Shown: positions 13,063 through 64,000 of the stretch, piece by piece
Layout: each line of letters begins with the position of its first letter
How positions within the stretch are numbered: the stretch's first letter is position 1
From: Minisyncoccota bacterium
GTDB taxonomy: Bacteria; Patescibacteriota; Minisyncoccia; Phycocordibacterales; BOKC01
Direction of reading: 5' to 3'
NCBI GenBank assembly: GCA_030583745.1
Contig: CP129473.1
Span: forward strand, 76,551 to 140,550
Length of the DNA stretch: 64,000 nucleotides
The notes under the pieces: model-generated
What the model was told of the DNA's origin: nothing
The model's database searches: none
Seen by the model: the letters and a program-made list of their open reading frames with translations, nothing else
Program-made: the position numbers and the translations under genes

Positions 13063-13192
13063 TTAAAGGGACGGGCCGAAGAATTACACTGGCGGAAAGG
13101 GGGATAGACTGGGGTGTTTTTGTCTTCCCCCGCCGTATCGTAGTGGGGGTGGAACGATATTCCGCCAGATTCTTTCGGCCCCTGGTTCCTCT

Positions 13193-13531
13193 TTAGTCTT
13201 CGACGACCCTCCTGACGACTCCATCACAGACCAGCCACTGTTTCGGCAGGTTTCGGTCGTCGTATAGTTCATCAATCCGAACCACCAAGAGGCGGCTTTC
13301 ATCTGCTTTGAATTTGAAAACCGCTACACTGTTTGGTTCAGACGGGAAGTCTCGGCCGTGTTTTTTCTCGTATTCCGAGACGGCCGAAAATGCTGCAGTA
13401 GCACTGTTTTTGACTGTCGGACTCTTTTCGATGAGGTTGATACTTTGCCAGATGACGTGGCCCATTGCCAGTATCAAAATAACGACAATGACGATGTTTA
13501 TCACGATCGTCGGGTTAGATTTTCTTCGCAT
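13193..13531 (-). CDS. membrane-anchored hypothetical protein (112 aa)
   Basis: A strong RBS 'GGGAGGCAAAAATG' precedes the start. An N-terminal TM segment 'IVINIVIVVILILAMGHVIW' is followed by a soluble domain. Confidence 0.55.
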   Translation of the reverse strand: MRRKSNPTIVINIVIVVILILAMGHVIWQSINLIEKSPTVKNSATAAFSAVSEYEKKHGRDFPSEPNSVAVFKFKADESRLLVVRIDELYDDRNLPKQWLVCDGVVRRVVED

Positions 13532-14066: not shown

Positions 14067-14141
14067 TCCGGCGTAGCTCAGTGGTAGAGCAAGCGACTGT
14101 TAATCGCTGGGTCGTAGGTTCGAATCCTACCGCCGGAGCCA
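14066..14141 (+). tRNA. tRNA-Asn (GUU)
   Basis: It folds as a cloverleaf with acceptor UCCGGCG/CGCCGGA, D-arm GCUC…GAGC, anticodon stem AGCGA/UCGCU with loop CUGUUAA (GUU), T-arm GUAGG-UUCGAAU-CCUAC, discriminator G and an encoded CCA. Confidence 0.9.
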
Positions 14142-14180
14142 ATAATAAAATCCTTCCCTTTTTGGGAGGGATTTTATTAT
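14141..14180 (+). terminator. long hairpin immediately 3' of tRNA-Asn
   Basis: 'aataataaaatccttccc-ttttt-gggagggattttattatt' forms an ~18-bp stem. Confidence 0.6.
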
Positions 14181-14390
14181 TGGCTCCCGAATTAAAACCT
14201 TCGCAAACTTTTGAAATTATTTTGCCAAATTTGATACACAAATCCAAAAAGCGAAATCTGAAATGATGCGCCCCGCCACTATTTTTCTGGGGTAAAGGAG
14301 GCGGGGCGATGGACTCGCCCGCGCGGAGGAGGGGTCTGGGGAGGAATCCGCGCGGGCTTCGGCTTTCTTTTTCGAAAGAATTGGCGGCTA
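14180..14390 (+). repeat. inverted repeat copy A (211 bp)
   Basis: It is ~97% identical (7 mismatches) to the reverse complement of 16305-16514. The internal hairpin 'gcgccccgccac…ggcggggcg' is present. Confidence 0.9.
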
Positions 14391-14468
14391 CAAATTGAAG
14401 AAAGAAGAAATTCATGTTAGTATAGTTGTGAGGGTTAAGTTCAACGCTCATACTTATACTATCATACT

Positions 14469-14681
14469 ATGGAAAGTAAGAACAACAGACAAATTGGGGA
14501 TAAAATAAAAGCCATGCGCACAAAGCAAGGATTGACGCAAGACGCTCTTGCGAGAAAATGCGATATTCCCTATACAACACTGACAAAGATTGAATCAAAT
14601 GTGATAAAAAAACCCTCAATTCAAACAGTTACCAAGATTGCCGAGGGGTTAGGAATAAGTATTGACGATTTAATTAAATAA
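14469..14681 (+). CDS. XRE-family HTH transcriptional regulator
   Basis: 'IGDKIKAMRTKQGLTQDALARKCDIPYTTLTKIESN' is an HTH_3 helix-turn-helix. Confidence 0.85.
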   Translation: MESKNNRQIGDKIKAMRTKQGLTQDALARKCDIPYTTLTKIESNVIKKPSIQTVTKIAEGLGISIDDLIK

Positions 14682-14682
14682 C

Positions 14683-15282
14683 ATGAATTCAATTTGTATT
14701 TTTGGAGACAGTACCGCTTGGGGTGCTTGGGATATGAAGAAAGGTGGTTGGGCAAATCGTCTATGGCTTTACGCTGGTAAGAAAACTGATGGTGAATGCG
14801 AAATTTACAATTTAAGTATTTCTGGTGGCACAACAGAAACGATACTTGAAAGGTTTGAGTCCGAAGCGAAAATCCGCGAAGCGGACGCCCTCATTTTCCA
14901 GTCCGGCGGCAATGATTCCTATCTAAAAGGCAAGAATGGCCCCAATCAAATTCCAGTTGATCAATTTAGGAAAAATCTGCAGGAAATAATCAGGAAAGCC
15001 AAAAATATCACACCAAACATAATTTTCATCGGCTTCAAAAATGTTGACGAGACAAAAACAATGCCGGTCTCATGGAAAGATATTTACTACGTCAACGCCG
15101 AAATCAAAAAGTACGACGAGATTATGAAAGATGTTTGCAAAGAAAACAACATTCCGTACTTGGATATTTTTGGCCTTCTCAAAAATGAGGATTTTGAGGA
15201 TGGTCTTCACCCCAATACTTTAGGGCATAAGAAAATTTTTGAGAAAGTGAAAAACTTTCTTGAAGAAAATAAATGGATATGA
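14683..15282 (+). CDS. SGNH/GDSL hydrolase
   Basis: Block I 'ICIFGDSTAWG', block III 'SGGND' and block V 'DGLHPN' are present. Confidence 0.85.
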   Translation: MNSICIFGDSTAWGAWDMKKGGWANRLWLYAGKKTDGECEIYNLSISGGTTETILERFESEAKIREADALIFQSGGNDSYLKGKNGPNQIPVDQFRKNLQEIIRKAKNITPNIIFIGFKNVDETKTMPVSWKDIYYVNAEIKKYDEIMKDVCKENNIPYLDIFGLLKNEDFEDGLHPNTLGHKKIFEKVKNFLEENKWI

Positions 15283-15602
15283 ATACGAAGAATGTAAAAT
15301 TTGTAGTTTTTGTTCCGCTTTCGCACGCTGATATCGTACGACAAGCGCTCGGCAAAGCCGGAGCAGGCAAAATCGGCAACTATGACTTCTGCTCATTTTC
15401 TTCTCGCGGAATCGGCCGCTTTCGCGGAAACAAAAAGACAAACCCCGCTATCGGCGAGGCAGGAAAATATGAGGTGGTAGAGGAAGAACGAATTGAGGCA
15501 GTCGTGCCACGAGAGATTTTGGGGGGAGTCATTGAGAAAGTGAAAAGCGTCCACCCATACGAAGAAGTCGCTTTTGATATTTACCCGCTAGAAAACTACT
15601 AG
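15273..15602 (+). CDS. NIF3-like small protein (C-terminal 'HPYEEVAFDIYPLEN' motif)
   Basis: The 'VHPYEEVAFDIYPLEN' terminus is typical of NIF3/YqfO-family C-termini. The protein is only 109 aa. Confidence 0.5.
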   Translation: MDMNTKNVKFVVFVPLSHADIVRQALGKAGAGKIGNYDFCSFSSRGIGRFRGNKKTNPAIGEAGKYEVVEEERIEAVVPREILGGVIEKVKSVHPYEEVAFDIYPLENY

Positions 15603-15605
15603 ATT

Positions 15606-16307
15606 ATGGCAACAATTCACAAAAAAGTTTGGCGAGAATACTTTGAGAAAATTATTTCCGGCAAGAAAAAGCTGGAGTTGCGCCTTGCCGATTTTGAGAT
15701 AAACGAGGGTGATACTTTGATTTTGGAGGAATGGGACAAAGATAAAAAAGAATATACTGGCAGAAAATTTGAAGCTGTTGCTACCTATATTCTCAAAACC
15801 AAAGACCAAACTTTTTGGTCGCAGGAGGAAGTAGAAAAGCATGGTTTTCAGATTATCCAATTTGAGCCGAAAGACAGCCTTGCTCAACGTCCGAAAGTTG
15901 GTGTTGGCGTGATGATTTTGAAGGAAAATAAAATTTTGCTAGGAAAGCGAAAAGGTTCGCATGGCGAGGGCGAGTATGCCTTCCCCGGCGGCCATTTGGA
16001 ATACATGGAATCTTTTGCGGATTGTGCTCGGCGCGAAGTGAATGAGGAATGTGGAATTGAGATTGAAAATATCCATTTCCAATATTTGGCGAATATCATA
16101 AAGTACGCGCCGAAGCACTATACGCATATCGGTCTTGTGGCAGATTGGAAAAGCGGTGAGCCAAAAGTTTTAGAACCGGAAAAATCAGAATCGTGGGGTT
16201 GGTATGAAATAGACAACTTGCCTCTACCGATTTTTGAGATGTGCAAGTTGGCTGTTCAATGCCACAAGACCGGAAAGAATTATTTGGATGTTTCCGATTT
16301 GAAATAG
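15606..16307 (+). CDS. ASCH-domain / NUDIX hydrolase fusion protein
   Basis: The N-terminal ASCH-like part is 'KVWREYFEKIISGKKKLELR'. The C-terminal Nudix box is 'GGHLEYMESFADCARREVNEECGIE'. Confidence 0.8.
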   Translation: MATIHKKVWREYFEKIISGKKKLELRLADFEINEGDTLILEEWDKDKKEYTGRKFEAVATYILKTKDQTFWSQEEVEKHGFQIIQFEPKDSLAQRPKVGVGVMILKENKILLGKRKGSHGEGEYAFPGGHLEYMESFADCARREVNEECGIEIENIHFQYLANIIKYAPKHYTHIGLVADWKSGEPKVLEPEKSESWGWYEIDNLPLPIFEMCKLAVQCHKTGKNYLDVSDLK

Positions 16308-16514
16308 CCGCCAATTCTTTCGAAAAAGAAAGCCGAAGCCCGCGCGGATTCCTCCCCAGACCCCTCCTCCGCGCGGACAAGTCCGTCGCCCCGCCTCCTT
16401 TGCCCCAGAAAAATAGTGGCGGGGCGCATCATTTCAGATTTCGCTTTTTAGATTTGTGTATCAGATTTGGCAAAATGATTTCAAAAGTTTGCGAAGGTTT
16501 TAATTCGGGAGCCA
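16305..16514 (-). repeat. inverted repeat copy B (210 bp)
   Basis: It is the reverse complement of copy A. Its outer end 'aattcgggagccaa' mimics the tRNA-Asn 3' end. Confidence 0.9.
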
Positions 16515-16618
16515 AGAAACTAGATACGAACTCATTTTTTGAATATGAGAGTGTTCGCTCCGCCTTCGCTAAAGCTATGACGGACACGCCGTCTAGCCCC
16601 GAGAGTGGCGGGGCTGTT

Positions 16619-16645
16619 GAGGCACAGCAAGGAAATTCCTTGATA
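16619..16645 (+). promoter_or_regulatory. 27-bp motif copy 1 with palindrome CAAGGA-AAT-TCCTTG
   Basis: 'gaggcacagcaaggaaattccttgata' repeats exactly at 17306-17332. Each copy sits ~50-80 bp upstream of a consensus promoter. Confidence 0.6.
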
Positions 16646-16696
16646 TTATGTCATACGACAGGTTGTTTGAGTTTCGAGATTCACGGTAACCCATAC

Positions 16697-16725
16697 TTGA
16701 CATAATCCATGTAATGGTGTATACT
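16697..16725 (+). promoter_or_regulatory. sigma-70 promoter (TTGACA-17-TATACT)
   Basis: This is a perfect -35 with 17-nt spacing and a near-consensus -10, upstream of the 16837 gene. An RBS 'AAAGGAG' precedes the ATG. Confidence 0.7.
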
Positions 16726-16836
16726 GGTATCAGATTCTTAGTCGTATGACTAAGTCGTCTCTTGCACCGAAAGGTGGGAGGTAAGGGAGTATGTGGGTTC
16801 TCCATTTAACCCATAGTTCAATGAAAGGAGTGTCGT

Positions 16837-17241
16837 ATGACACGCAATAGAATCATCAACGCCCCGTCCAAGTTCGACCTCAGCATCGCCTTCTTCGATC
16901 GGCCAAATCCCGAGCAGCTCGGTGGCCGTCGGTCGGTGACCTTCACCATCGAGGGTCCCAGCTGTCCGAACGGCCAGCGCCAGATCGAAGTCGTCATCAA
17001 CCACATCTCGTGGGAAGACGGCTCCGGTGAGAGCTGGTGCTTCGAGGGATACTGTAAGACCGATGTCGGCCAGCCTCAAAACTCGACTGCCGAGGTCAAG
17101 GGTTGGTTCCGGACTTCGGACCGCAAGGGTTGGATCAACATCGACGCGTCTGCTCAAAGCAATACGAGCGGGACTGCTGGTCAGGGTGACTCTGGCCTTC
17201 GCAACGTGATCGATCAGATCGCCACGCAGCGGAATCAGTAA
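16837..17241 (+). CDS. GC-rich hypothetical protein (134 aa)
   Basis: The gene is ~58% GC with its own promoter, RBS and terminator. No family was recognised. Confidence 0.6.
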   Translation: MTRNRIINAPSKFDLSIAFFDRPNPEQLGGRRSVTFTIEGPSCPNGQRQIEVVINHISWEDGSGESWCFEGYCKTDVGQPQNSTAEVKGWFRTSDRKGWINIDASAQSNTSGTAGQGDSGLRNVIDQIATQRNQ

Positions 17242-17256
17242 GCGTTGAGAAATTCA

Positions 17257-17296
17257 GGGCGACCAAGGCAATAGCCAAGGTCGCCCTTTCTCTTTA
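17257..17296 (+). terminator. intrinsic terminator
   Basis: The stem 'agggcgacc…ggtcgccct' is followed by 'ttctcttt'. Confidence 0.65.
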
Positions 17297-17305
17297 TTTA
17301 TACTC

Positions 17306-17332
17306 GAGGCACAGCAAGGAAATTCCTTGATA
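17306..17332 (+). promoter_or_regulatory. 27-bp motif copy 2
   Basis: It is identical to 16619-16645. Confidence 0.6.
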
Positions 17333-17359
17333 CGCTGTTATTGGGATATTACGCATTAC

Positions 17360-17388
17360 TTGACAGTATTCGTATAGTATGCTAGCAT
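17360..17388 (+). promoter_or_regulatory. sigma-70 promoter (TTGACA-17-TAGCAT)
   Basis: It lies upstream of the 17432 gene. An RBS 'AAGGAAAGGAG' precedes the ATG. Confidence 0.55.
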
Positions 17389-17431
17389 CTATATTAGACA
17401 CAAACACTGCAACCAAGGAAAGGAGTGATAA

Positions 17432-17671
17432 ATGCGTAAGTTCACACTTCACTGTCTCGGCGGAAAGACCGAGGGAGTCGAAGGGACAGACATCGCCGAC
17501 GCTTGCCGTAGGGCTGGCATCGGTGCGGGAGACCTTCCTGCTCTCGACTACTTCGAGGAGAAGGGTGAGAAGACCCAGGTCGCTGGTGCATCCAGTTCCT
17601 GTGGGTGCTGGTATCACGCAGAAGAAGGAACTGCGTGCCAGCACGACCTCGAGGTGGTTGGGCTCAAGTAG
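17432..17671 (+). CDS. GC-rich Cys-containing small protein (79 aa)
   Basis: The gene is ~60% GC. The product has 6 Cys, including 'SSSCGCWYH'. It has its own promoter, RBS and terminator. Confidence 0.55.
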   Translation: MRKFTLHCLGGKTEGVEGTDIADACRRAGIGAGDLPALDYFEEKGEKTQVAGASSSCGCWYHAEEGTACQHDLEVVGLK

Positions 17672-17678
17672 CTCTCTC

Positions 17679-17728
17679 CGCCCCGACAAAGAGATTCGTC
17701 TCTGCGTCAGGGGCGGATTTCTTTTTAT
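17679..17728 (+). terminator. intrinsic terminator
   Basis: The stem 'ccgccccgac…gtcaggggcgg' is followed by 'atttctttttat'. Confidence 0.65.
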
Positions 17729-17898
17729 GGAATTAGTTCTGAAGAATAGCACTTAGAACCATCTCTAAAATCCCACTAAACTGCAATTCACTCTTTATCT
17801 TCCTCCAATTTGCAGTTCTGAACTTGTCCAGCAAGGGGAGCCATTACAAATCGAAGTAAAATGTCTTTTTATTTTCATTTTTGCTAATATAGATCAGT

Positions 17899-33074: not shown

Positions 33075-33184
33075 AAGATAAATATATCACAAACAAATAT
33101 CATCTAAATTTAATAAGGGATGTCAGACGTCCCTTATAATATTAAGGACTTGCGATGTCCTTAATATTAAAAAAGAAAAAACCC

Positions 33185-33225
33185 GCGCTGGCCGGCTCTT
33201 GCGAGCGGCTAGCGCGGGGGTATGG
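33185..33225 (-). terminator. intrinsic terminator after the GC-rich membrane-protein gene
   Basis: On the minus strand 'cccgcgctagccgctcgcaagagccggccagcgcggg' is followed by 'ttttttc'. Confidence 0.6.
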
Positions 33226-33226
33226 C

Positions 33227-33700
33227 TTAAGCCGAGATCCCTCGGTTCTGTCCTCGGATCAGACCCAGAAGGAATCGGGTTGAGAATAACCCGATTCCCC
33301 AGACCGTGCCGACGACCGGCAATGCCGTAAGCCACATAACCCAGAACGGCTCCTTAGCTCCTTCGTCCTTGGCGGTGCTGGAGGCGACAGCAGTCATGAG
33401 GGCAACGAGGACGAGGAGGGAGACGGTGGAGACCACACTGGAGGTTGCGGTGCGGAGGGCGAGAACGGCGATTGCGGTGGCACAGGCGGCGAAGGCGGCG
33501 GGGATGATGAGGGCGAAGACGCGAGAAGTGAAGGCGCAGGAGACGAAGGCGGCGGCGAAGAGGGCGAAGGCGGCGGCGAGGGCGGCGAGGGCGGCGGAGG
33601 TAGAGGCAGTTCTGAAATCGCCGGTAATGGCGTATACGCCGCCTCCTACGATACACTGAAGGCCGAGTACGAACGTCGTATAGATCCACAGCTTCTTCAT
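33227..33700 (-). CDS. GC-rich (~65%) Ala-rich multi-TM membrane protein
   Basis: The RBS 'GGGAGAACGAA-ATG' gives MKKLWIYTTFVLGL… Its composition is atypical for this genome. Confidence 0.5.
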   Translation of the reverse strand: MKKLWIYTTFVLGLQCIVGGGVYAITGDFRTASTSAALAALAAAFALFAAAFVSCAFTSRVFALIIPAAFAACATAIAVLALRTATSSVVSTVSLLVLVALMTAVASSTAKDEGAKEPFWVMWLTALPVVGTVWGIGLFSTRFLLGLIRGQNRGISA

Positions 33701-33859
33701 TTCGTTCTCCCTTTCTTTTTTTATCATTGCCGAAATCACATGATTTCGGAAAATTTTCCACTTAAGATTCTAATAGATGTTATCCATGTTGTCAAATTTA
33801 ATTTTGTAAAAATTTATGACCCGAAGTTTGAAATTTGAAATCAAAAATCTCAAACAAAA

Positions 33860-51919: not shown

Positions 51920-53221
51920 ATGAAAGATTTTCTTAAAAAAACCATTGTTCATCTTATTACTTTTGAATCTAAGCTGATAATCAAAAAATATCAGCCGAAG
52001 ATTGTTGCTATCACCGGCAGTGTCGGCAAAACCGGCACCAAAGATGCAGTTCACGCTCTTTTTTCTAAATTGTTCTATGCCGAAAAAAGTCCAAAAAGTT
52101 TTAACAGCGAAGTTGGGATTCCACTTTCAATTATCGGTGGCCAAAAAAGTGGGTGGAGAAATCCGCTATCTTGGCTTAAGGTTGTTTTGGACGGCTTATT
52201 TTTAATTATTTTACCAAATCATTATCCGAGGTGGCTAATTCTCGAGGTTGGGGCTGACAGGCCGGGAGACATAGAGGAAATTTCAAATTGGCTGAAAACT
52301 GACGTTGCGATCTTCACCAGAATGAGCGAAGTGCCGGTTCACGTTGAGTTTTTTGATTCACCGCAATCAGTCTTAAAAGAAAAAATGTTTTTGTTAAAAT
52401 CTCTTAGGTCGGAGCAGGGCGTTGCAGTTTACAATTACGATGATGAAATTATAAGAAGGGAGATTGAGGACAGAAAAGAATTGACCAAGTTGTCTTATGG
52501 TTTTGACAAAAAAGCCAGAGTCTCTGCTTCAAACTATGCAATTATTTATGATAGAAAAACTGGTTTTCCTTCGGGTATAAATTTCAAAATTAATTTTGAT
52601 GGTTCAAGTGTACCAGCCACGATTTACGACACAGTTGGCCGTCAGCAAGTTTATGCTGTCTTGGCCGGGGTTACGGCCATTTTGTCTCAAGGTGGTAATC
52701 CAGTAAAAGCAATTGAAGGTCTTCTTGATTATAGAAGTCAGCCGGGCCGAATGAAGATTTTAGAAGGTGTAAAAAATTCTCTTATTATTGACGATAGCTA
52801 CAATTCTTCTCCGGTTGCCCTGTTTGAATCGCTTGATACTTTGAAATCTATCAAGTGCGCTGGAAGAAAAATTGTAATTTTGGGCGATATGATGGAGATA
52901 GGACGCTATTCAATTGACGAACATAAAAAAGCCGGAGCTTTAGTGGCCGAGTTTGCCGATTTTATTTTTACTGTTGGTGTTCGAGCAAAATGCATCAATG
53001 ATGGCGCTTTAGAAAGGGGGTTTTCGCCTGAAAAAATTTTTAATTTTGGCGATTCCAGAGAAGCCGGAAAACAAGTGGAAATTATGGTTCAGCCAGGCGA
53101 CATCGTCTTAGTAAAAGGTTCACAATCAGCTAGAATGGAGCGGGCAGTTGAAGAAATCATGAATGATCCGATGAAAAAAGAAGAACTTTTGGTAAGGCAA
53201 GAACAAAGCTGGCGTTTCTGA
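51920..53221 (+). CDS. murF: Mur ligase, probably UDP-MurNAc-pentapeptide synthetase MurF
   Basis: The P-loop 'ITGSVGKTGTKD' and Mur ligase middle and C-terminal domains are present. The 433-aa size and its position after ftsI also fit. Confidence 0.7.
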   Translation: MKDFLKKTIVHLITFESKLIIKKYQPKIVAITGSVGKTGTKDAVHALFSKLFYAEKSPKSFNSEVGIPLSIIGGQKSGWRNPLSWLKVVLDGLFLIILPNHYPRWLILEVGADRPGDIEEISNWLKTDVAIFTRMSEVPVHVEFFDSPQSVLKEKMFLLKSLRSEQGVAVYNYDDEIIRREIEDRKELTKLSYGFDKKARVSASNYAIIYDRKTGFPSGINFKINFDGSSVPATIYDTVGRQQVYAVLAGVTAILSQGGNPVKAIEGLLDYRSQPGRMKILEGVKNSLIIDDSYNSSPVALFESLDTLKSIKCAGRKIVILGDMMEIGRYSIDEHKKAGALVAEFADFIFTVGVRAKCINDGALERGFSPEKIFNFGDSREAGKQVEIMVQPGDIVLVKGSQSARMERAVEEIMNDPMKKEELLVRQEQSWRF

Positions 53222-53359
53222 TAAAAATTTTTGTTTAAGATGTGGTTTGCTAGTTGGCAAAGAGAGAAAAAGAGAAGGTTACTTTTTCATTCCCTCGCCA
53301 TACAGCGCGCCTTCGGCGCGCCCAGATTTTGCGCTTACTTCCGACCAAGTTTCTGAATG

Positions 53360-53603
53360 TGACGATATTATAGCCTTTGCTCGAACCTATTTCGAGTCAA
53401 AGACCGACTGACTTCGCACGCGCGGAGCGCGTGGTGGCTTGGAACTACATCGTACGCTCCGATCGCGTGGTGATGCCAACTCATGCTGCCAGCGCCTCGA
53501 CAAGCTCGGCGCTCCGCCCTCGCCCCGTTTCCGCTCTCCATGCTTTTTCTTTTTTCGCGGGGGGATTTTTTTAAAAATTGAATGGGCGGAAAACGGGGCT
53601 CGG
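53360..53603 (+). repeat. inverted repeat IR244 left copy
   Basis: It is 100% identical to the reverse complement of 59256-59498. The track ORFs 53377..53574 (+) and 59284..59481 (-) give identical 65-aa translations. Confidence 0.9.
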
Positions 53604-53604
53604 T

Positions 53605-54260
53605 CGGGCTTCACCTAAAAGGGTGAAGCGTGGCGTCATTCGTTCAGTGGTGCCTCGGATCTATTCTATCAATTTTGCGTTCATGGCTAAAGGGACGGCA
53701 CCCTCGGCATCCACCTCGGGCTATTTCCGCTAGGGCTACGAGCGCCTAGATGCCTAGGAGTGTCGCTTTTCCTCGCAAGTGCGCCTTGCTAGGCGCTTGC
53801 TCGGGCGACACGCAGTTTGGGGGAAGGAAGGAATCCTTCCCCCAGCTTCGGGCTCCTCCTCGCAGTGGTCGTTCGGAGTGTACGGTGCCGTACAGATAAC
53901 AAGGTACGTCGTGAGTTTCTCTCTCGCTTTGACGTGCCTTCGGAGTCCGCCTTCGCACAACCCCCATCCTCGTTTTCAATATTTCTTTCGTGGTGTCGCT
54001 TCCGCTACGATACTTTGTTTTGCAATATAACGTCGGCGCTCGTCCTTTAGCCCTGGACGCTCCTAGCGGAAATAGCCCGAGGGCTCTGCCTTATGTGCTT
54101 GCCCCAGGCCGTGTTAGTACACGGCTCCCACCCGTGCGCGCACAAACCCCGCCCGCAAGCGGGCGGGACTCCCTGCAAAATGCAAGTGCCCTCGGGAGGA
54201 TTCGAACCTCCAAGATCGGGGTAGAGGCCCGACAGTTTATCCATTAGCTTACGAGGGCAA
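53605..54260. ncRNA. candidate large structured RNA (GC-rich, ORF-free, extensive self-complementarity); identity unknown
   Basis: The region is ~58% GC. The long-range pair 'cctcgggctatttccgctagg' (53722-53742) faces its reverse complement at 54061-54081. Many local hairpins are present (gggggaagg…ccttccccc, gtacggtgccgtac, cccgcccgcaagcgggcggg). The strand of transcription is uncertain. Confidence 0.35.
54185..54256 (-). other. tRNA-like element (T-arm GGAGG-UUCGAAU-CCUCC and 7-bp acceptor GCCCUCG/CGAGGGC; irregular D/anticodon arms; no CCA)
   Basis: On the minus strand it reads 'gccctcgtaagctaatggataaactgtcgggcctctaccccgatcttggaggttcgaatcctcccgagggca'. The anticodon stem 'ucggg/cccga' has loop 'ccucuac' (C at position 33). 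The D-arm is poorly paired, so it is likely a pseudo-tRNA or a structural mimic. Confidence 0.4.
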
Positions 54261-54345
54261 AGAGAAAGAAGCGCATAAATGCGCTGGGGGAATTCTTTAT
54301 CTTCTGTGCCTCGTATTAAACATTACTGTTTACATTAACATTTTT

Positions 54346-54373
54346 TTGAAAAAATAAAAACAAGAGTTATAAT
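54346..54373 (+). promoter_or_regulatory. sigma-70 promoter (TTGAAA-16-TATAAT)
   Basis: It lies upstream of a ~170-nt GC-rich leader that precedes the YjzC-like ORF. Confidence 0.5.
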
Positions 54374-54544
54374 TCAACAATTGAAGTCCTTTGAAATGCT
54401 GGCGGGATAGTCGGAGCGCCCTTTTCTGCATCTTAGGGGATCATCTCACCTCCTCCCCCCTGGTCAGTGCTTTTTCGAGCATTGACTCGGGGGCGCGTAG
54501 CAGGTCGAGCCCCTGGATTACCAGAATTAAGCGAAACGATTGTT

Positions 54545-54706
54545 ATGACTAAAGTCAAAACAGGCGGTACTGCTAAAAAATCTGGACAGTATAGAGTCGA
54601 GGGTACAAAAACCCTCGAGATTACATTGTCTAGAGGCGATCGCGTTCCACCTCATGGAGGAAAGGCGAGAACCTTTGTGCTCGTTGATAAGACGAAACAC
54701 AAATAG
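54545..54706 (+). CDS. YjzC-like small protein (53 aa)
   Basis: 'VKTGGTAKKSGQYRVEGTKTLEITLSRGDRVPPHGGKARTFVLVDK' follows the YjzC pattern (K.G..AP..G.Y.e.G…i.L..GD.fP…..W). The start is at the internal ATG and the RBS is weak. Confidence 0.4.
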   Translation: MTKVKTGGTAKKSGQYRVEGTKTLEITLSRGDRVPPHGGKARTFVLVDKTKHK

Positions 54707-54750
54707 TAAGTAACCGCTAAACTTTTCCTGCCAGCATTTCAGAGGATTTT

Positions 54751-56238
54751 CTATTTTATTCTCAAAAATGGTTTGCTAAGGGTTAAGCGATAATCTCCAA
54801 AAAACTCTTTTATCGTCTTTCTGGTCCTGTGTTTTTCAATGTATTGATCTAAATAAGTGAGTAGTTCTTTTTCAACCTCGACGAAGCTGTCTGGGCAAAT
54901 AGATTTGTAATGATTGACCCAACCGCCAGCAAAAGATTTGTATGCCTTAATTACTTCTCCAAAATCAAATTTTTTGACGATACCAACATTTACAATTTCG
55001 CGCTCAAAAGTGTTTTTAAATTCCTGGATTGCCTCCTTGGGAATGAAAAGACTATTTTTCGAAATACCAACCCCAAGGAATTCGAAACTATTTCCATCAA
55101 TATTTAATAACTGTGTTTTACTACCAACCTCAAGTGGGTGTAATTTCAATTTAAGTTTCTCGCTTCCTGATTTAATTAACTCATATACATTATTTGCTTG
55201 ACCTTCACTTTTTGAAAGAACGATCATGTCATCAAGGTATCTGAAACCCTTGCACCCTTTTACTTTGTTAGGAATTTTATCAAGTGGTAAGGCGTAATAA
55301 CTTGAGAGAAATGGTGAGTATGAAAGACCCTGCGGAATGCCAGTGGTCTTTAGTTTAAGGTGTCCAAATGTTCCATGAAAATCTGAATCTGCCTCAATTT
55401 TATTTTCTATGGATACCTTTATTAATCGAAATAATCTGCGTTGATCTTTGCCTCTGAATTTTTTACTCAGTTGCTTTAATAAAATACTTCTATCAATGGA
55501 TGAGAAAAAATCTTTAAAATCTAATTTTAAAATATAGCGAGCCTCGCCATTTTTTAAAGCTCTCTGTATTTCATTGAGTATTCGCTTACATTCACTGGTG
55601 TCTTTTTCTTTCTTAATACCAAGTCCAAGTGCACCGTATTCCTCTAAGGCTGGTTTTAGAATATTACAAACTTTTGGAAATACGGCTGATAAAACGATCC
55701 GGTCTTTTGAAGAAGGGATAAGAAGGGGTCTATATTTTCCGTTAGATTTTCTTATTTTCAAACCAGAATATGGTAAGAAAGAAAATCGCCGTAATTCTTT
55801 CGAGTAGAATTCGGCTACACTTATCTTCTTTATGTATTTCCCTAGATCATTTAGCTCCCGCTCCTCTATTCCTGAAAATCTTTTTAAATCTGAAAAGTTT
55901 TTGCGAAATACTTTACGTCTCAAACTCTTAAATGCACTTGCGATTTGTTCTTGAGTTAAAAGCAGTTGCAGGTTCACATAATTTTCTATGATAGACGACC
56001 TCACTGGACTCGAACCAGTGCATGTTCCGAAAGATCGTGCTCCCTTAAGGGTAGAGGCTACTGCCGAAGCGATAGCCTCACCATTAAGGGTACTACTTTT
56101 CAGTCCGTTCGTCAACCGAAGTTGATAGACTTTCCTAATCGGTAGGTGGCGACCTGCAAGAGTAAAGTTTATGGCGTGCATAATTCTTTTCCCTCGCAGG
56201 AAGTCGTGAGCCGAAGCCCACTGTAAAATATTATACAT
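54751..56238 (-). CDS. group-II-intron-like reverse transcriptase with maturase/X (thumb) domain, not embedded in an intron ribozyme (G2L-type)
   Basis: RT motifs 1-7 are present: 'NGKYRPLLIPSSKDRIV', 'LKLDFKDFFSSI', 'GIPQGLSYSPFL', 'FRYLDDMIVL' and 'LHPLEV…'. The X-domain 'AGGWVNHYKS' is also present. No D1-D3 or D5/D6 intron RNA is found; flanks are occupied by other genes. The first ~85 codons of the track ORF overlap structured RNA (see findings). Confidence 0.8.
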   Translation of the reverse strand: MYNILQWASAHDFLRGKRIMHAINFTLAGRHLPIRKVYQLRLTNGLKSSTLNGEAIASAVASTLKGARSFGTCTGSSPVRSSIIENYVNLQLLLTQEQIASAFKSLRRKVFRKNFSDLKRFSGIEERELNDLGKYIKKISVAEFYSKELRRFSFLPYSGLKIRKSNGKYRPLLIPSSKDRIVLSAVFPKVCNILKPALEEYGALGLGIKKEKDTSECKRILNEIQRALKNGEARYILKLDFKDFFSSIDRSILLKQLSKKFRGKDQRRLFRLIKVSIENKIEADSDFHGTFGHLKLKTTGIPQGLSYSPFLSSYYALPLDKIPNKVKGCKGFRYLDDMIVLSKSEGQANNVYELIKSGSEKLKLKLHPLEVGSKTQLLNIDGNSFEFLGVGISKNSLFIPKEAIQEFKNTFEREIVNVGIVKKFDFGEVIKAYKSFAGGWVNHYKSICPDSFVEVEKELLTYLDQYIEKHRTRKTIKEFFGDYRLTLSKPFLRIK

Positions 56239-56303
56239 TAACCGGCTTATTCAGCAATAGAAAATCTGTGGATAACTCGCTGTAGTTTTCGGTATTCTTT
56301 CGG

Positions 56304-56325
56304 TTATAATATGCTTATATTATAA
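56304..56325. promoter_or_regulatory. palindrome TTATAATAT-gctt-ATATTATAA in the divergent RT / LexA-MTase promoter region
   Basis: It has 9-bp inverted arms and lies 20 bp upstream of the LexA-MTase ATG. It is a candidate operator. Confidence 0.4.
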
Positions 56326-56345
56326 CATATAACTTTTTATAAATT

Positions 56346-57914
56346 ATGAGATCTCTTACCATAAGACAAAAGCAAATATTCGATTTCATTGACTCCTATA
56401 TAGCGAAGAAAGGCATTTCTCCCACAATAGACGAGATAAGGAAAAAGTTTAAATTAAAATCAGTTTCTACTATTCATCAGCATATAAACGCTTTAGTTGA
56501 AAAAGGTTATTTAGAAAAAGATGAAAAATCCGTCCGAGGTCTTAAAATAAAAGGAGAAACTGACTCTATAAGAATTCCCGTTGTTGGAATGATTGCCGCC
56601 GGACAGCCGATTGAAGCAATAGAGAATATTGAGAGACATATCGGTGTAAGCCGAAGCGTAGTGAAAAATAGCGATGATCATTATGCCTTGCGAGTAACTG
56701 GAGAGAGTATGATTGATGAAGGTATTTTTGATGGAGATATTGTTATCATAAAAAAGCAGTCAGTGGCTGAAAACGGACAAACTGTAGTAGCAATAATCGA
56801 TGACAATGAGGCTACGTTGAAAAAAATATATAGGGAGAAAAACAGATTTAAACTTGAACCGGCAAATCAGAGCATGCTCCCTTTTTATCGCAAAGAGGTG
56901 GAAGTGCGAGGTGTCGTTGTGCAGGTTATCAGAAATATTGATAATCGTCCCGAGGATAAAAAAATTCAGAAAAATGGCTATAAGACCGTTGACTTGTTTG
57001 CTGGTGTAGGAGGAATACGTCTCGGATTTGAAAAAGTCGGTTTTGAAACTGTGTTTGCAAATGATTTTGAACCGCAATGCAAGGACACTTATGATCTTAA
57101 TTTTGACACCTCAAAGCTCGTCGTAGAAGACATAAGAAAAATTGGCATCGAAGATTTGCCTGAATTTGATTTTCTCCTCGGGGGTTTCCCGTGCCAGGCG
57201 TTCTCTATTGCCGGATATAGGCAGGGATTTGGAGATGAGAAAGGTCGCGGAAATTTATTTTTTGACATAGCAAGAATGTTAGAAGCAAGAAAGCCGACAG
57301 GATTTCTTTTAGAGAATGTAAAAAATCTAATGGGCCATGACAAAGGCAGGACTTTCAAAATTATTAAAGAAACTCTTGAGGGTCTAGGTTATCATGTCCA
57401 TGCAAAGGTTCTCAACACTATGGAGTACGGAAACATTCCGCAAAATCGCGAGAGAATTTATATTGTTGGATTTAGGGACAAAAAGCATTTTGAAAGGTTT
57501 GAATATCCTAAGCCCGTTAAACTAGCTGTAAGCGTTACCGACATGCTAGAGGACGAGGTGGATAAAAAATATTATTACAATGGAAAACCCCTATTCCCAA
57601 GGTTAAAAGACGATGTTAAAAAAGAAGGAACGGTTTATCAGTGGAGGAGGAAATATGTCCGGGAAAACAAAAGCGGAGTATGCCCAACGCTTACCGCAAA
57701 TATGGGAACCGGCGGGCATAATGTTCCGATTATCAAAGATAAAAAAGGAATAAGAAAACTAACCCCTTTAGAGTGTTTTAGAATTCAGGGATTTCCAAAA
57801 CACTACAAGCTTCCAGAATTGGCTGACTCTGCACTGTACAAGCAGGCAGGAAATTCGGTTTCTGTGCCAGTAATAGAAGCCGTGGCAAAAGAGATGCTGA
57901 ACGCCGTTAGTTAG
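56346..57914 (+). CDS. LexA repressor (HTH + S24 peptidase) fused in-frame to DNA (cytosine-5)-methyltransferase
   Basis: Residues 1-~200 align with E. coli LexA. This includes the cleavage-site 'IAAGQP', catalytic Ser 'TGESM' and Lys 'TLKKIY', and 'GVVVQVIRNI'. Residues ~205-522 carry C5-MTase motif I 'FAGVGGIRLGF', motif IV 'GGFPCQAFS' and motif VI 'LLENVKNL'. Confidence 0.85.
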   Translation: MRSLTIRQKQIFDFIDSYIAKKGISPTIDEIRKKFKLKSVSTIHQHINALVEKGYLEKDEKSVRGLKIKGETDSIRIPVVGMIAAGQPIEAIENIERHIGVSRSVVKNSDDHYALRVTGESMIDEGIFDGDIVIIKKQSVAENGQTVVAIIDDNEATLKKIYREKNRFKLEPANQSMLPFYRKEVEVRGVVVQVIRNIDNRPEDKKIQKNGYKTVDLFAGVGGIRLGFEKVGFETVFANDFEPQCKDTYDLNFDTSKLVVEDIRKIGIEDLPEFDFLLGGFPCQAFSIAGYRQGFGDEKGRGNLFFDIARMLEARKPTGFLLENVKNLMGHDKGRTFKIIKETLEGLGYHVHAKVLNTMEYGNIPQNRERIYIVGFRDKKHFERFEYPKPVKLAVSVTDMLEDEVDKKYYYNGKPLFPRLKDDVKKEGTVYQWRRKYVRENKSGVCPTLTANMGTGGHNVPIIKDKKGIRKLTPLECFRIQGFPKHYKLPELADSALYKQAGNSVSVPVIEAVAKEMLNAVS

Positions 57915-58958: not shown

Positions 58959-59171
58959 TTATTTGAATCGCAAAAGCTCATCAGGATCCACATCCAGAGC
59001 GTCTGATATCTTTTTTATATTCTCAACAGAAACATTGCGCTCGCCTCGTTCAATATCGCTCATGTATGTTCTGTGCAGTTTCGCTTTTGTAGCGAGTTTT
59101 TCCTGCGAAATACCCGCCTCCAAGCGAAGTTCTTTAATTTTCTGTCCTAATTGTTTCTTAATATTTGACAT
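58959..59171 (-). CDS. controller (C) protein, XRE-family HTH
   Basis: The 70-aa product contains 'LGQKIKELRLEAGISQEKLATKAKLHRTYMSDIERGERNVS'. The stop abuts the downstream REase start. A C-box lies upstream. Confidence 0.75.
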   Translation of the reverse strand: MSNIKKQLGQKIKELRLEAGISQEKLATKAKLHRTYMSDIERGERNVSVENIKKISDALDVDPDELLRFK

Positions 59172-59228
59172 GCAAAGTCTGGTAACTTATTGACTACATC
59201 ATATCTTTTTGAGTAAAATAGGGCTACA

Positions 59229-59249
59229 GACTATAAGTGACGTATAGTC
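59229..59249. promoter_or_regulatory. C-box-like palindrome GACTATA-N7-TATAGTC
   Basis: It lies ~58 bp upstream of the C-protein start and matches the GACT…AGTC C-box consensus. Confidence 0.55.
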
Positions 59250-59255
59250 TAAGCC

Positions 59256-59498
59256 CGAGCCCCGTTTTCCGCCCATTCAATTTTTAAAAAAATCCCCCCG
59301 CGAAAAAAGAAAAAGCATGGAGAGCGGAAACGGGGCGAGGGCGGAGCGCCGAGCTTGTCGAGGCGCTGGCAGCATGAGTTGGCATCACCACGCGATCGGA
59401 GCGTACGATGTAGTTCCAAGCCACCACGCGCTCCGCGCGTGCGAAGTCAGTCGGTCTTTGACTCGAAATAGGTTCGAGCAAAGGCTATAATATCGTCA
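59256..59498 (-). repeat. inverted repeat IR244 right copy
   Basis: It is the perfect reverse complement of 53360-53603. Confidence 0.9.
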
Positions 59499-59578
59499 CA
59501 ATTTAGAACTTTTCCCAATGCGCGTCGCTCCGCGACGAATTCGGACGGAACTGGCGCGCCGAAGCGCGCGGATTTGTC
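59496..59578 (+). repeat. inverted repeat IR83 left copy
   Basis: It is the perfect reverse complement of 60994-61076. It contains the GCGCGC-UUCG-GCGCGC hairpin and lies in the recombinase promoter region. Confidence 0.9.
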
Positions 59579-59604: not shown

Positions 59605-61092
59605 ATGTCCAAACCAAAATATTTTCTTTACGCTCGCAAATCGACGGAAGATGATGACAAGCAGGTCATGTCTATCGAGGCTCAACTTTTTGAATTGCGA
59701 GAGTTTGCACGTAAAGAAAATCTTGAAATTGTTGAGACATTTCAAGAGTCGAAAAGCGCAAAGACTCCGGGCAGGCCTCTGTTCAACAAGATGATGGCGA
59801 AGATAGAGGAAATGGAGAATGTCGGCATTCTTGCGTGGCATCCGGATCGTCTCGCGAGAAATAGCGTGGACGGCGGTCGCATCATCTATCTTGTTGACCA
59901 GAAGAAAATCACGTCTTTGCGCTTTCCGACATTTTGGTTTGAACCCACCCCGCAGGGGCTCTTTATGTTGCAAGTGGCGTTCGGTCAATCGAAGTATTAC
60001 TCCGACAACTTGGTGGAGAACACCAAGCGCGGGATGCGCCAAAAAGTGCGGCGAGGCGAGTGGCTCACAAAAGCGCCGTTCGGGTACGTGAACAATCCGA
60101 AGACGAGGAATATCGAACCGCACCCGACTCATTCCAAAATCATCGTCCGCGCTTTTGAGGAGTATGCGAAAAAATCGCACACGCTGAAATCACTCGCCGA
60201 TTTTTTGGCGCTTCACGGAGTAAGTACTTCCAAAGGTACGCCACTTGGCAAAGCTTCCATCAAACGAATGCTGACCAACAGGGCATATTTGGGATTTGTG
60301 AAGCATAAGGAGGAATGGTTTGACGGAAGCTTTGCGCCAATTCTTTCCCCGAAATTGTTTGAAGCCGTGCAAAAGGTATTAGCGACAAGAGAACGCCCGC
60401 GCAAAACAAAGACCGGCCACAATTTTCCTTTCGTTGGACTTTTTCGTTGCGGAGAGTGCGGGAGCATGATCACTGCGCAGTGGGCGACGGGGAAATCAGG
60501 AGGACGGTATCGGTACTATCGGTGCACGAAAAAGAAAGGAAATTGTGACCAAGGGTATATGCGCGAGGAATCTCTTGTCGCAGACGTAAAGGAACGGCTC
60601 CAAACAATTTCGCTTTGCGATGAGGATACTGATTATATGCTCAAGTGCGTTCTGCAATTCGAGCAAGAGGAAAACCGCTCATCGCAAAGCCGCGTTCAAA
60701 ATCTTTCTTTCAAACTCAAAGCAAGCGAGGAGAAGCTTGACCGTCTTGTCTCGGCCTTTATTGATGGTGACATTCCAAAGGAAATTTATCTCGCCAAGAA
60801 GGACAAGCTGATGCGGGAATCACTTGCTTTGCGGGAACAGCGGAAAGATTTTGAACGCGAGGGAAAGAATTGGGTCGAACCCCTACGGGAGTGGATTTTA
60901 GATACGAAACAAGCCAATTTTTTGAGCTCATCCGCTGATTTTCACAAAATCAGCTCCTTCGTCAAAAAAGTTGGAACGAACCCTACGGTTCGTGACAAAT
61001 CCGCGCGCTTCGGCGCGCCAGTTCCGTCCGAATTCGTCGCGGAGCGACGCGCATTGGGAAAAGTTCTAAATTGTGACCCTATCGGGATTTGA
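59605..61092 (+). CDS. large serine recombinase (resolvase/integrase)
   Basis: The N-terminal resolvase domain 'YARKSTEDDDKQVMSIEAQ' carries the catalytic Ser. A recombinase domain and zinc ribbon 'CGECGSM…YYRCTKKKGNC' follow, with a C-terminal coiled coil. Confidence 0.9.
   Translation: MSKPKYFLYARKSTEDDDKQVMSIEAQLFELREFARKENLEIVETFQESKSAKTPGRPLFNKMMAKIEEMENVGILAWHPDRLARNSVDGGRIIYLVDQKKITSLRFPTFWFEPTPQGLFMLQVAFGQSKYYSDNLVENTKRGMRQKVRRGEWLTKAPFGYVNNPKTRNIEPHPTHSKIIVRAFEEYAKKSHTLKSLADFLALHGVSTSKGTPLGKASIKRMLTNRAYLGFVKHKEEWFDGSFAPILSPKLFEAVQKVLATRERPRKTKTGHNFPFVGLFRCGECGSMITAQWATGKSGGRYRYYRCTKKKGNCDQGYMREESLVADVKERLQTISLCDEDTDYMLKCVLQFEQEENRSSQSRVQNLSFKLKASEEKLDRLVSAFIDGDIPKEIYLAKKDKLMRESLALREQRKDFEREGKNWVEPLREWILDTKQANFLSSSADFHKISSFVKKVGTNPTVRDKSARFGAPVPSEFVAERRALGKVLNCDPIGI
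60994..61076 (-). repeat. inverted repeat IR83 right copy
   Basis: It overlaps the last ~30 codons of the recombinase and ends 3 nt inside the tRNA-Glu 3' end. Confidence 0.9.
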
Positions 61093-61148
61093 ACCCGAGT
61101 TTTCGCCTTGAGAAGGCGACGTCCTAGACCAGACTAGACGATAGGGCC
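61074..61148 (-). tRNA. tRNA-Glu (CUC)
   Basis: On the minus strand it reads GGCCCUA-UC-GUC…GAC-G-UCGCC-UUCUCAA-GGCGA-AAAC-UCGGG-UUCAAAU-CCCGA-UAGGGUC-A. Acceptor stem is 7 bp (one G·U), D-stem 3 bp. Anticodon loop is UUCUCAA, giving anticodon CUC. No CCA is encoded. Confidence 0.75.
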
Positions 61149-63298: not shown

Positions 63299-63318
63299 CG
63301 GGGGCTATGAGGTCAGTA

Positions 63319-63873
63319 TCAATGTTCGCCCATGATACGAACAATCTCTGCAAGATCCAGAAGTCGTCTGGCATCTCTCTTGAGTTTAGCCACGATCTGC
63401 TCCGTACTCTCGTCTTCGGGGTCAGAACTGTCGTTTCCCCTCAAAAGCGCGTGGACTTCATCGATATCCAGATTGAGGTCCGTGAGGAACTGTGCGTCAC
63501 AACCATAGGTCTCGCGGAGCAGGCCGAAGAGCAGATGATCGGTGCCGACACGTTTGTGGTTGAGTATGCGCGCCATTTCTCTGGCGTACTCAACGACTCT
63601 TTCGGCACTCTGTGTTCGGGGAAGAAAGTTACCCAAGATAGTGGGCATCTCTAGGGTGGCGCTCTCGATGACGAGTGCGTCTTTCAACTTAAGAAGCGCC
63701 TCGCTCGGTCTCACACCAAGGTGTTGGAGTATATCCGTGCTGGCGCTTGGGTTCTCTTCCATTAATCCCAACAGGAGGTATTCGGGTCGAATGCTGTCAC
63801 GGCCTTGATGCAATGACCACCAATTGGCTCGAATCATCGCTTTGGTGGCCGTAGTGGAAAGCCCCTGAAACAT
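63319..63873 (-). CDS. stand-alone double Clp-N (ClpA/B/C N-terminal) domain protein, GC-rich
   Basis: Two Clp_N repeats are 'PEYLLLGLMEE…' and 'TDHLLFGLLRE…'. The RBS 'AAGGAG' is 7 nt before the ATG at 63873. The gene is ~55% GC. Confidence 0.6.
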   Translation of the reverse strand: MFQGLSTTATKAMIRANWWSLHQGRDSIRPEYLLLGLMEENPSASTDILQHLGVRPSEALLKLKDALVIESATLEMPTILGNFLPRTQSAERVVEYAREMARILNHKRVGTDHLLFGLLRETYGCDAQFLTDLNLDIDEVHALLRGNDSSDPEDESTEQIVAKLKRDARRLLDLAEIVRIMGEH

Positions 63874-64000
63874 ATACCATCTCCTTTCTTGTTTTCTACA
63901 AAAAGCAACGAGCTTTTTGTTTGCGCTCTGTCCTCTTTCTTTATAACAAACCAAACCCCGCCTGACAACCACTTGAAAGCAAAGCTCCCAAGCTTTTTTA

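Follow-up and report, generated by a model that had tools for sequence, protein, structure and literature searches.

What is a GC-rich block without genes doing next to a reverse transcriptase (RT) gene in a Patescibacteria genome? The question arose from a 64,000-nt stretch of a Minisyncoccota bacterium (GenBank assembly GCA_030583745.1, contig CP129473.1, positions 76,551 to 140,550; hereafter the window, in whose coordinates all positions are given). A first-pass annotation had marked positions 53605-54300 as a self-complementary region with an embedded tRNA-like unit and had proposed an RT-associated non-coding RNA (ncRNA). Our analysis indicated that the observation was real and its framing mistaken, as two unrelated things lie side by side within a mobile element. 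The reading we consider probable is that a recombination-site arm (U) and a structured extension (Ext) together form a conserved, non-coding, base-paired module of ~815 nt at one cassette end of an element driven by a large serine recombinase (LSR), with the neighboring tRNA-Arg gene as cargo.

Conservation and structure of the U and Ext module

GC content was 55-58% from about 53250 to about 54300, against ~35-42% in the flanking DNA, and the region held just short open reading frames (ORFs) overlapping on both strands, which bore out its description as GC-rich and ORF-free. The limits given to it were another matter: the rise in GC content stood, whereas the conserved block begins at 53358 and stops at 54174, or begins at 53285 if a remnant arm described below (P2) is counted. 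The murF gene ends to the left of the GC-rich block, at 53221.

Homologues of Ext numbered about 85 in all (nhmmer), in Patescibacteria genomes and metagenomes, and a two-anchor pattern taken from invariant Ext stretches yielded 84 further metagenome loci. U and Ext were conserved as a unit in L074 (74% identity over 754 nt), L089 and L052 (L numbers denote loci compared with the window), and the architecture of all three was that of the window: U and Ext, ~5 kb of cargo, an inverted U, the recombinase gene, the recombinase-side arm (P), and a tRNA or transfer-messenger RNA (tmRNA) gene. Ext was 57-94% identical in nucleotides, compared with 37-70% amino acid identity of the accompanying recombinases. 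Its right border was sharp, with homology stopping after GGGRCTCCCT (GGGACTCCCT) and unrelated AT-rich cargo following, and copies ~93% identical to one another adjoined eight unrelated cargos. The cargo of Ext elements included type II and type III restriction-modification genes, a glycosyltransferase, DsbA and a sigma factor. The cargo beside Ext is thus freely exchanged while Ext keeps its sequence and helices, and its position relative to the crossover was always the same. Ext is also optional and modular; L046, a copy of the L052 type, was without precisely the ~330-nt domain that is closed by a long-range helix.

The structure was tested on an alignment of 47 non-redundant Ext sequences (A3, median identity 76%), using 85 base pairs predicted identically from both strands, 500 shuffles, and controls in which pairing partners were slid. 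Standard pairs filled 94.6% of the alignment cells (88.7% after shuffling). Changes on both sides were found in 33 of the 85 pairs, compared with 18.7 +/- 2.0 in shuffled alignments, and in 249 cells, compared with 79 +/- 11 after shuffling and 24-41 with slid partners; none of the 500 shuffles reached any observed covariation value. The first-pass annotation had staked its claim of conserved structure on covariation among homologues, and compensatory changes in more than a third of the tested pairs upheld it. With ~85 homologues elsewhere and covariation far above both kinds of control, the structure is more than chance.

Among the best-supported helices (Table 1) was one of 24 bp and long range, composed of a 21-nt perfect core and adjoining pairs and conserved in the 47 homologues. 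The first-pass annotation had reported the 21-nt complementarity; the match is indeed perfect, and its left arm had been placed 8 nt off (the arms are 53714-53734 and 54062-54082). The boundary between U and Ext lies within a 14-bp helix with four covarying pairs. Outside the helices, Ext contained long invariant unpaired stretches, such as CTCCTCCTCGCAGTGGT and GTCGCTTCCGCT, and the motif YCCTCGCA (GAGG-rich on the minus sense) was repeated four times.

The substitutions within pairs were symmetric with respect to strand, and the counts of G.U-type and A.C-type cells therefore favored neither strand, and neither RNA nor single-stranded DNA (70 versus 77 in strand-neutral pairs; 25 versus 26 in 20 covarying pairs). 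Each energy model added strand-specific helices with its own G.U pairs, built from invariant columns. An RNA transcribed from a single strand would not usually show such symmetry, which fits single-stranded DNA or a constraint on both strands, that is, transcripts from either direction or sense/antisense pairs. No consistent hairpin and U-tract was found at the inner end of U that could be taken as a conserved intrinsic terminator.

The block had no match in Rfam 15 (4227 models, among them GOLLD, ROOL, HEARO, group I and II introns, RNase P, tmRNA and riboswitches). The covariance-model search that the first-pass annotation had recommended returned nothing but tRNAs above chance level in 52800-54900, even at E<=10; the best of the chance-level hits, to the glutamine riboswitch model (20.7 bits, cut-off 35), fell outside Ext. 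The element had no match in phage and plasmid collections (BLAST) or in viral contigs (pattern scans), an exact look-up of two spurious ORF translations from the region found neither on record, and full-text literature searches returned no account of the element or the RNA.

The embedded tRNA-like unit, to which aberrant D and anticodon arms had been ascribed, proved to be a normal tRNA-Arg gene. A cloverleaf score above the gathering cut-off and a readable anticodon were found for this 73-nt part of the region only. It is an ordinary gene carried as cassette cargo, and the minus-strand hairpin with T-tract that had been reported beside it is present at 54285-54270. The tRNA-Arg gene was also considered as a second attachment (att) junction or an obligatory partner of Ext. 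Both ideas were rejected, as the adjacency recurred in L133 alone and most Ext loci had no tRNA at that place.

Other GC-rich patches occur in the window. A block of ~650 nt at 33100-33800 reached 64-68% GC, the window maximum; it looked non-coding, lay between two minus-strand genes, held ORFs overlapping on both strands, had no meaningful Rfam match and resembled no fetched locus. Patches at 12200-13400 and 63300-63900 had 51-57% GC, and the former was Rfam-negative.

The recombinase element around the module

Self-comparison showed that U is the exact reverse complement of a second copy that lies directly upstream of the recombinase gene (Table 1). Likewise, 59495-59578 (84 nt) was 100% identical, inverted, to 60994-61077 at the 3' end of the recombinase gene. 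As U is repeated, inverted and identical at this place, inverted repeats of 246 bp enclose the 5.65-kb cargo, and a further pair of 84 bp encloses the recombinase gene. The cargo comprised Ext, tRNA-Arg, a small ORF, the RT, a LexA-methylase fusion, a nuclease and a helix-turn-helix (HTH) gene. Two public contigs with window genes broke exactly 30 nt into the repeats (L001 ends at the equivalent of 53387 and L002 starts at 59284), which is the expected behavior of repeats.

Three junctions shared the hexamer TGTGAC and exchanged their arms around it. Junction A (53358) reads flank, core, P'; junction B (59495-59500, reverse complement) reads P, core, P'; and junction C (61072-61077) reads P, core, tRNA-Glu. 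The one short core common to three junctions and the adjacent recombinase with all three of its domains identified U and P as att arms, and equivalent junction logic with other cores and targets was found in L015, L074 and L052. Judged from these sequences, junction A looks like the attL and junction C like the attR of a serine-integrase element, and junction B is an intact, inverted attP-like site between cargo and recombinase. The last ~33 recombinase codons lie within the P arm and its inverted repeat, the core and the tRNA end. On the outer side of junction A, P2 was 98.7% identical to positions 11452-11530 of L074, the arm that follows the L074 recombinase; the simplest reading is that P2 would be what remains of an older element, with the present one having inserted directly beside it.

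U contained a recombinase half-site (CCTTTGCTCGAACC), the most conserved 76-nt core of the arm (53411-53486), an AT-rich patch and two 26-nt direct repeats. It also carried a promoter that faces the recombinase gene at junction B and the host flank at junction A.

Table 1. Features of the recombinase element and its surroundings in the window.
Feature	Position	Strand	Remarks
P2, putative leftover of a P arm (recombinase side) from an older element of the L074 type	53285-53357	+	Outer flank of junction A
Crossover core TGTGAC, junction A (attL-like)	53358-53363	+	Identity between junctions starts or stops here
U (P' arm), left copy of 246-bp perfect inverted repeat	53358-53603	+
Outward sigma70-type promoter in U, TCGAAA-17-TATAAT	53367-53395	-	10/12 consensus; ends 9 nt before crossover
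Ext, 571-nt structured extension	53604-54174	not assigned	Core of the finding; ~85 homologues
Long-range helix, 5' arm	53712-53736		Closes optional ~330-nt domain; 96.8% of cells paired
Supported helix	53761-53766 / 53805-53810		A3 alignment
Supported helix	53776-53786 / 53791-53799		A3 alignment
Supported helix	53818-53828 / 53834-53844		A3 alignment
Long-range helix, 3' arm	54059-54084		Partner of 53712-53736
Supported helix	54095-54102 / 54136-54143		A3 alignment
Supported helix	54148-54157 / 54158-54167		A3 alignment
tRNA-Arg(UCU) gene	54186-54258	-	Rfam RF00005, 55.3 bits (cut-off 29); ARAGORN tct
Terminator-like hairpin and T-tract	54270-54285	-	Just upstream of tRNA-Arg
Reverse transcriptase, ~409 aa, UG17-like	54751-55980	-	GTG start at 55980; PADLOC RT_UG17 3.9e-39; Pfam RVT_1
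Conserved structured region upstream of RT	55981-56228 (about)	-	Candidate RT-associated ncRNA
U, right inverted copy	59255-59500	-	With 59501-59578, intact attP-like site, junction B
Promoter twin in right U	59463-59491	+	Points into recombinase gene
P arm, upstream inverted copy	59501-59578	-	Recombinase leader; GC hairpin, then T-rich tract
Large serine recombinase (LSR), 495 aa	59605-61092	+	Pfam Resolvase, Recombinase, Zn_ribbon_recom
P arm and core, junction C (attR-like)	60994-61077	+	Abuts tRNA-Glu 3' end
tRNA-Glu(CUC), putative integration target	61073-61148	-	Rfam tRNA model; ARAGORN

Relatives of the recombinase numbered at least 579 among species-representative Patescibacteria genomes, of which the best 80 (65-89% identical) were kept for locus comparison. 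Nearly all of these 80 were labeled Patescibacteria, with a few records under other or generic labels; many of the loci lay 100-300 nt from a contig end, and several genomes held two or three copies. In 52 recombinase copies, the upstream region held an inverted copy of the gene's own 3' end (the P arm), and in most of the 52 that 3' end abutted the final nucleotides of a tRNA or tmRNA gene. The targets in this set were tRNA-Glu, Ser, Arg, Leu, Lys, Gly, Pro, Ala, Phe and Thr, along with tmRNA; tRNA-Asn is a further target, its gene overlapping the recombinase 3' end in L104, L117 and L149. All this suggested a Patescibacteria-wide, LSR-driven integrative family whose insertion point appears to be the very 3' terminus of a tRNA or tmRNA gene (tRNA-Glu in the window). 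The targets had in common the T-arm motif GA(A/T)TCGAAC, always equally far from the crossover, and a CCTTTGCGCGAACC half-site in the P' arm matched it. RNA-guided targeting was set aside, given this shared motif and its mimicry by the P' half-site.

All 33 of the diverse elements compared had a sigma70-like promoter (TCGAAA-N17-TAnnAT) in an identical position, overlapping the P' half-site. A hidden Markov model of U matched upstream of the recombinase in most of the 80 loci, and many had a second, inverted U copy 1.3-9 kb away. By score, the two copies of one element were identical or nearly so, whereas copies of different elements diverged strongly, which implied homogenization of the repeat pair.

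The orientation of the cassettes was less clear. One element, 100% identical throughout, was found in two forms: in L117 and L104 Ext is at the end distal to the recombinase, and in L149 it adjoins the recombinase-proximal U. Other elements with the recombinase on the contig comprised 12 with Ext distal, as in the window, 6 flipped, and 6 of a tandem type in which the recombinase gene and P lead directly into P', U and Ext, the junction expected of a circle or a tandem array. Tandem arrangements like the one suggested by P2 were present in L104 and L120. Nine contigs (L094, L095, L097, L115, L144, L147, L160, L162 and L172) ended in inverted self-copies of up to 1.7 kb, best read as path ambiguity across the repeats. 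No contig had direct terminal repeats, so no circular form was seen. From these sequences, cassettes appear to occur in both orientations relative to the recombinase, a picture to which assembler ambiguity across the repeats contributes. The arrangement is that of an invertible segment, which lies between inverted repeats that include a crossover site and has the recombinase gene next to it. No Gin- or Hin-like switch is evident, as the enzyme is a 495-aa LSR and the junction sequences are equal in both orientations.

Several further observations concern the element and its borders. The hairpin and T-rich tract of the P arm could act as an attenuator in the recombinase leader and, at junction C, as a terminator of the tRNA gene. 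The U copy nearer the recombinase is adjoined at its inner end by a Cro/C1-type HTH gene (58959-59254) whose transcription runs away from the recombinase; such a gene was found at the inner U end in the window and in several relatives (L052, L024, L028), and in the window it is preceded by the palindrome AGACTATA-N6-TATAGTCT. It may be a regulator of the element rather than just a restriction-modification controller. Elsewhere in the window, a second cassette of like kind, without a recombinase, occupies 14067-17800 beside tRNA-Asn (14067-14141). There, a pair of inverted repeats (14177-14390 and 16305-16518, 96% identical) flanks three ORFs, part of the cassette is 94% identical to L104, and a GC-rich zone at 16.3-17.8 kb, with ORFs overlapping on both strands, is Rfam-negative.

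Function of the module and competing explanations

We infer that U and Ext are a cis-acting backbone of the cassette and the partner of no cargo gene. In the mechanism that we tentatively favor over the others, they may act as a hairpin-rich barrier and sense/antisense control element at the cassette borders. The module lies at both borders, and would there separate variable cargo from the recombinase promoter, the att site and the host flank. Cargo could be transcribed in either direction, in which case U and Ext would have to fold in both transcripts, and the two inverted U copies would yield complementary RNAs able to pair. A barrier and control element of this kind would explain the border position, the missing promoter of the module, the identical copies, and the strand-symmetric substitutions that are Watson-Crick only.

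A number of findings weigh against this picture. Full-length Ext was present in only 3 of the 80 genome loci, with fragments in a few more and U with a short tail in most. The 241-bp repeat exceeds assembler k-mer length, and the orientation isomers may partly be path ambiguity. A barrier leaves the size of Ext and its invariant unpaired stretches unexplained; a plain one needs no 570 nt, no 24-bp long-range helix and no invariant loops such as CTCCTCCTCGCAGTGGT, features that are typical of partner-binding RNAs. Unpaired columns were A-rich on the minus sense (32% A, 18% U), a mild lean to one functional strand, the minus strand. Finally, no conserved promoter or canonical terminator for Ext or the body of U was recognizable on either strand.

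It is possible, if doubtful, that Ext, with or without U, is instead a discrete gene for a large trans-acting ncRNA, read from one strand (probably minus) and having a function of its own in the element. By analogy with GOLLD, ROOL and OLE-type RNAs, its roles might include protein binding or sponging, defense, or maintenance. The large multi-helix architecture with strong covariation, the invariant unpaired stretches and the four YCCTCGCA motifs all suit such a gene, as do the conservation of Ext beyond that of its recombinases, the optional domain missing from L046, the A-rich unpaired positions on the minus sense, and the co-direction of that sense with tRNA-Arg in the window and in L133. 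However, homology ends at the cargo border, and so there is no conserved upstream promoter for a minus-sense transcript; G.U-type substitutions equaled A.C-type ones, unlike in typical single-strand RNAs; and Ext keeps a fixed place relative to the crossover and is structurally continuous with U, itself part of an att arm and inverted repeat. The symmetry of the substitutions, their restriction to Watson-Crick pairs and the lack of an own promoter in U and Ext would also suit a structure that acts as single-stranded DNA after uptake, transfer or rolling-circle copying, as an array of origin, priming or promoter-forming hairpins. Plasmid single-strand origins, the f1 intergenic region and the Frpo/ssi sites of conjugative plasmids are the relevant precedents. 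The inverted U copies would then fold back and rebuild a duplex promoter and att site, and the AT-rich patch and 26-nt direct repeats of U, together with an element in which no conserved protein except the recombinase recurred, are in keeping with this. We nevertheless consider a single-stranded DNA function unlikely. It draws largely on analogy with well-known systems, genes for Rep, relaxase or coat proteins were missing from the cargo of Ext elements, and no contig was circular. Nor was the element found in collections of viruses, phages and plasmids, and a domain of 330 nt with many hairpins, closed by a long-range helix, is a feature more often seen in RNA. Also improbable is that U and Ext are an RNA or folded single-stranded DNA cofactor of the LSR, which would supply a directionality, synapsis or establishment function because these minimal elements lack a conserved accessory protein.

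The two explanations offered by the first-pass annotation were less likely still. A template or primer scaffold for the neighboring RT was suggested by proximity, as Ext lies ~0.6 kb downstream of the RT stop and on a strand that runs in the RT direction, and by L009, whose RT is 80% identical and has the tail of Ext 9 nt after its stop. However, adjoining sequence of at least 3 kb was available for 57 Ext loci, and of these only the window matched the RT-family profile (a distant RT in L110 lay ~11 kb from Ext). The other 56 lacked the RT family, and Ext is found beside unrelated cargo. Conversely, the RT relatives L004-L008 had no Ext within 8 kb; L009 was the only relative with part of Ext, the 3' tail, and this is because its RT sits in the same element or cassette family. 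A tRNA gene, a terminator-like hairpin and a small ORF on the opposite strand separate the RT from Ext, and the RT has a conserved structured region of its own upstream, in the position used by the ncRNAs of the defense-associated RT (DRT) systems DRT2, DRT9 and DRT10. A partnership between Ext and the RT is thus very unlikely, and the RT is cargo without a link to Ext. A captured or degenerate fragment of an rRNA operon had been proposed from a resemblance to the 23S 5' end, which came down to the 10-nt match GGUGGAUGCC on the minus strand, and from a CCUCC-rich plus-strand stretch at 54433-54455 recalling the 16S 3' end. Most family members read GGCGGAUGCC in place of the 10-mer, no large- or small-subunit rRNA model matched either the whole window at the gathering threshold or 52800-54900 at E<=10, and the Ext family forms helices of its own at a constant place within a mobile element; the chance that rRNA explains the block is negligible.

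The more promising RNA partner of the RT lies on its other side. Homologues of the RT were 405-422 aa long and covered 82% of the annotated 495-aa ORF; the first 86 codons of that ORF are therefore non-coding. The actual candidate for an RT-associated ncRNA would be the region at about 55981-56228, which the annotated ORF had swallowed. Its DNA was conserved more strongly than the RT protein (91% in L009, 81% in L004, 74% in L005-8), RNAalifold predicted 61 pairs, 12 of them compensatory, from four sequences, along with a T-arm-like hairpin (CACUGGUUCGAGUCCAGUG), and no Rfam match to the region was found. DRT2, DRT9 and DRT10 keep an ncRNA upstream of the RT operon, and that of DRT10, upstream of a SLATT-RT pair, is 137-143 nt long (PMC12632851; bioRxiv 10.64898/2026.04.29.721553). 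The window RT scored best against the UG17 (DRT10) profile, and those systems need a structured ncRNA. Ext does not resemble such a partner: it is 571 nt long rather than ~100-300 nt, lies downstream beyond a tRNA rather than upstream, and does not co-occur with the RT family.

Some features of the RT locus deserve mention in their own right. The UG17-like RT is divergently paired with a fusion of LexA (S24 peptidase) to a DNA methyltransferase in the window (54751-57914) and in L009 (1653-4627), with a C5 methylase as the fusion partner in the former and an N6/N4 methylase in the latter; LexA-methylase fusions recurred in the cassettes of L016, L018, L037, L092 and L098. There is no SLATT gene in the window, and the locus is thus not a canonical DRT10 operon. 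The small ORF (54467-54706, plus strand), likely 53 aa from an ATG at 54546, is convergent to the RT, is preceded by a promoter-like site at 54346-54373 (11/12 match), and has a 37%-identical homologue in L052. A 24-nt inverted repeat (54384-54407 and 54726-54749) brackets it and would pair the ends of its transcript.

Significance and comparison with known systems

To our knowledge, few structured non-coding elements with solid covariation reach 500 nt or more, and earlier classes (OLE, GOLLD, ROOL and HEARO) each eventually revealed new biology. Ext is confined to Patescibacteria, a group in which little of the RNA biology and of the mobile elements has been charted. U and Ext define the backbone of a very common element, which apparently shuttles restriction-modification systems, RTs and other cargo among ultra-small bacteria; its recombinase has at least 579 relatives, many of them near contig ends and frequently more than one in a genome. 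In practical terms, the family is a systematic cause of breaks and palindromic artifacts in Patescibacteria assemblies, and the locus holds a lesson for annotation, as the real RNA partner of an RT should here be sought upstream of a mis-called start codon. The combination of a duplicated, inverted attP, long identical repeats, apparently invertible cassettes and a promoter within the half-site has no obvious precedent among serine-recombinase elements. If U and Ext were a cofactor of the LSR, no serine-recombinase system before it would have had a structured nucleic acid as a dedicated component, and it would be a combined platform for integration and cassette inversion of defense genes across the Candidate Phyla Radiation.

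Among known systems, the yeast 2-micron plasmid offers a likeness in overall design: an excised circle of the present element would carry two long, identical inverted repeats with recombinase sites, separating two unique segments, and apparent flip-flop isomers were seen. However, the plasmid uses the FLP tyrosine recombinase and 599-bp repeats, whereas the present enzyme is a serine recombinase and neither replication functions nor a circle were detected in its element. The bridge (seek) RNAs of IS110 and IS1111 likewise come from a structured non-coding region by the crossover and the recombinase gene, in systems with many targets; the enzyme class is different, and the target range here is explained by the T-arm motif and the P' half-site. 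GOLLD, ROOL and HEARO (omega) RNAs resemble Ext in being hundreds of nucleotides long, ornate, supported by covariation and located in mobile DNA, sometimes beside tRNA genes. Unlike these, Ext matches no Rfam model, is restricted to the recombinase elements of Patescibacteria, is continuous with an att arm and has strand-symmetric substitutions.

The invertible segments of phages Mu (G segment, Gin) and P1 (Cin) and the Hin system share inverted repeats with a crossover flanking a segment, a recombinase just outside one repeat, a recombinase promoter that overlaps the site, and, as far as the assemblies show it here, the occurrence of both orientations. Those systems use a small serine invertase with an enhancer, and repeats of 26-34 bp. 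In contrast, the repeats here are 110-250 bp, the enzyme is an LSR with tRNAs as integration targets as well, it is not known to use an enhancer or Fis logic, and inversion alters no obvious coding or promoter junction. Close counterparts are also the LSR integrative elements and, more generally, genomic islands that target tRNA and tmRNA genes, with which the present family shares a three-domain recombinase at an att junction at the tRNA 3' end, a short common core, the hybrid-junction logic of attL, attR and attP, variable and largely defense cargo, and tandem accretion at the target. Three features set it apart. No directionality factor or other backbone protein is conserved. An intact, inverted attP-like site is kept upstream of the recombinase in every element, and cargo and recombinase gene are thus both bracketed by long identical inverted repeats. 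Moreover, the P' arm runs into a conserved, structured, non-coding module of 0.2-0.8 kb, apparently an undescribed large backbone module of a recombinase cassette element.

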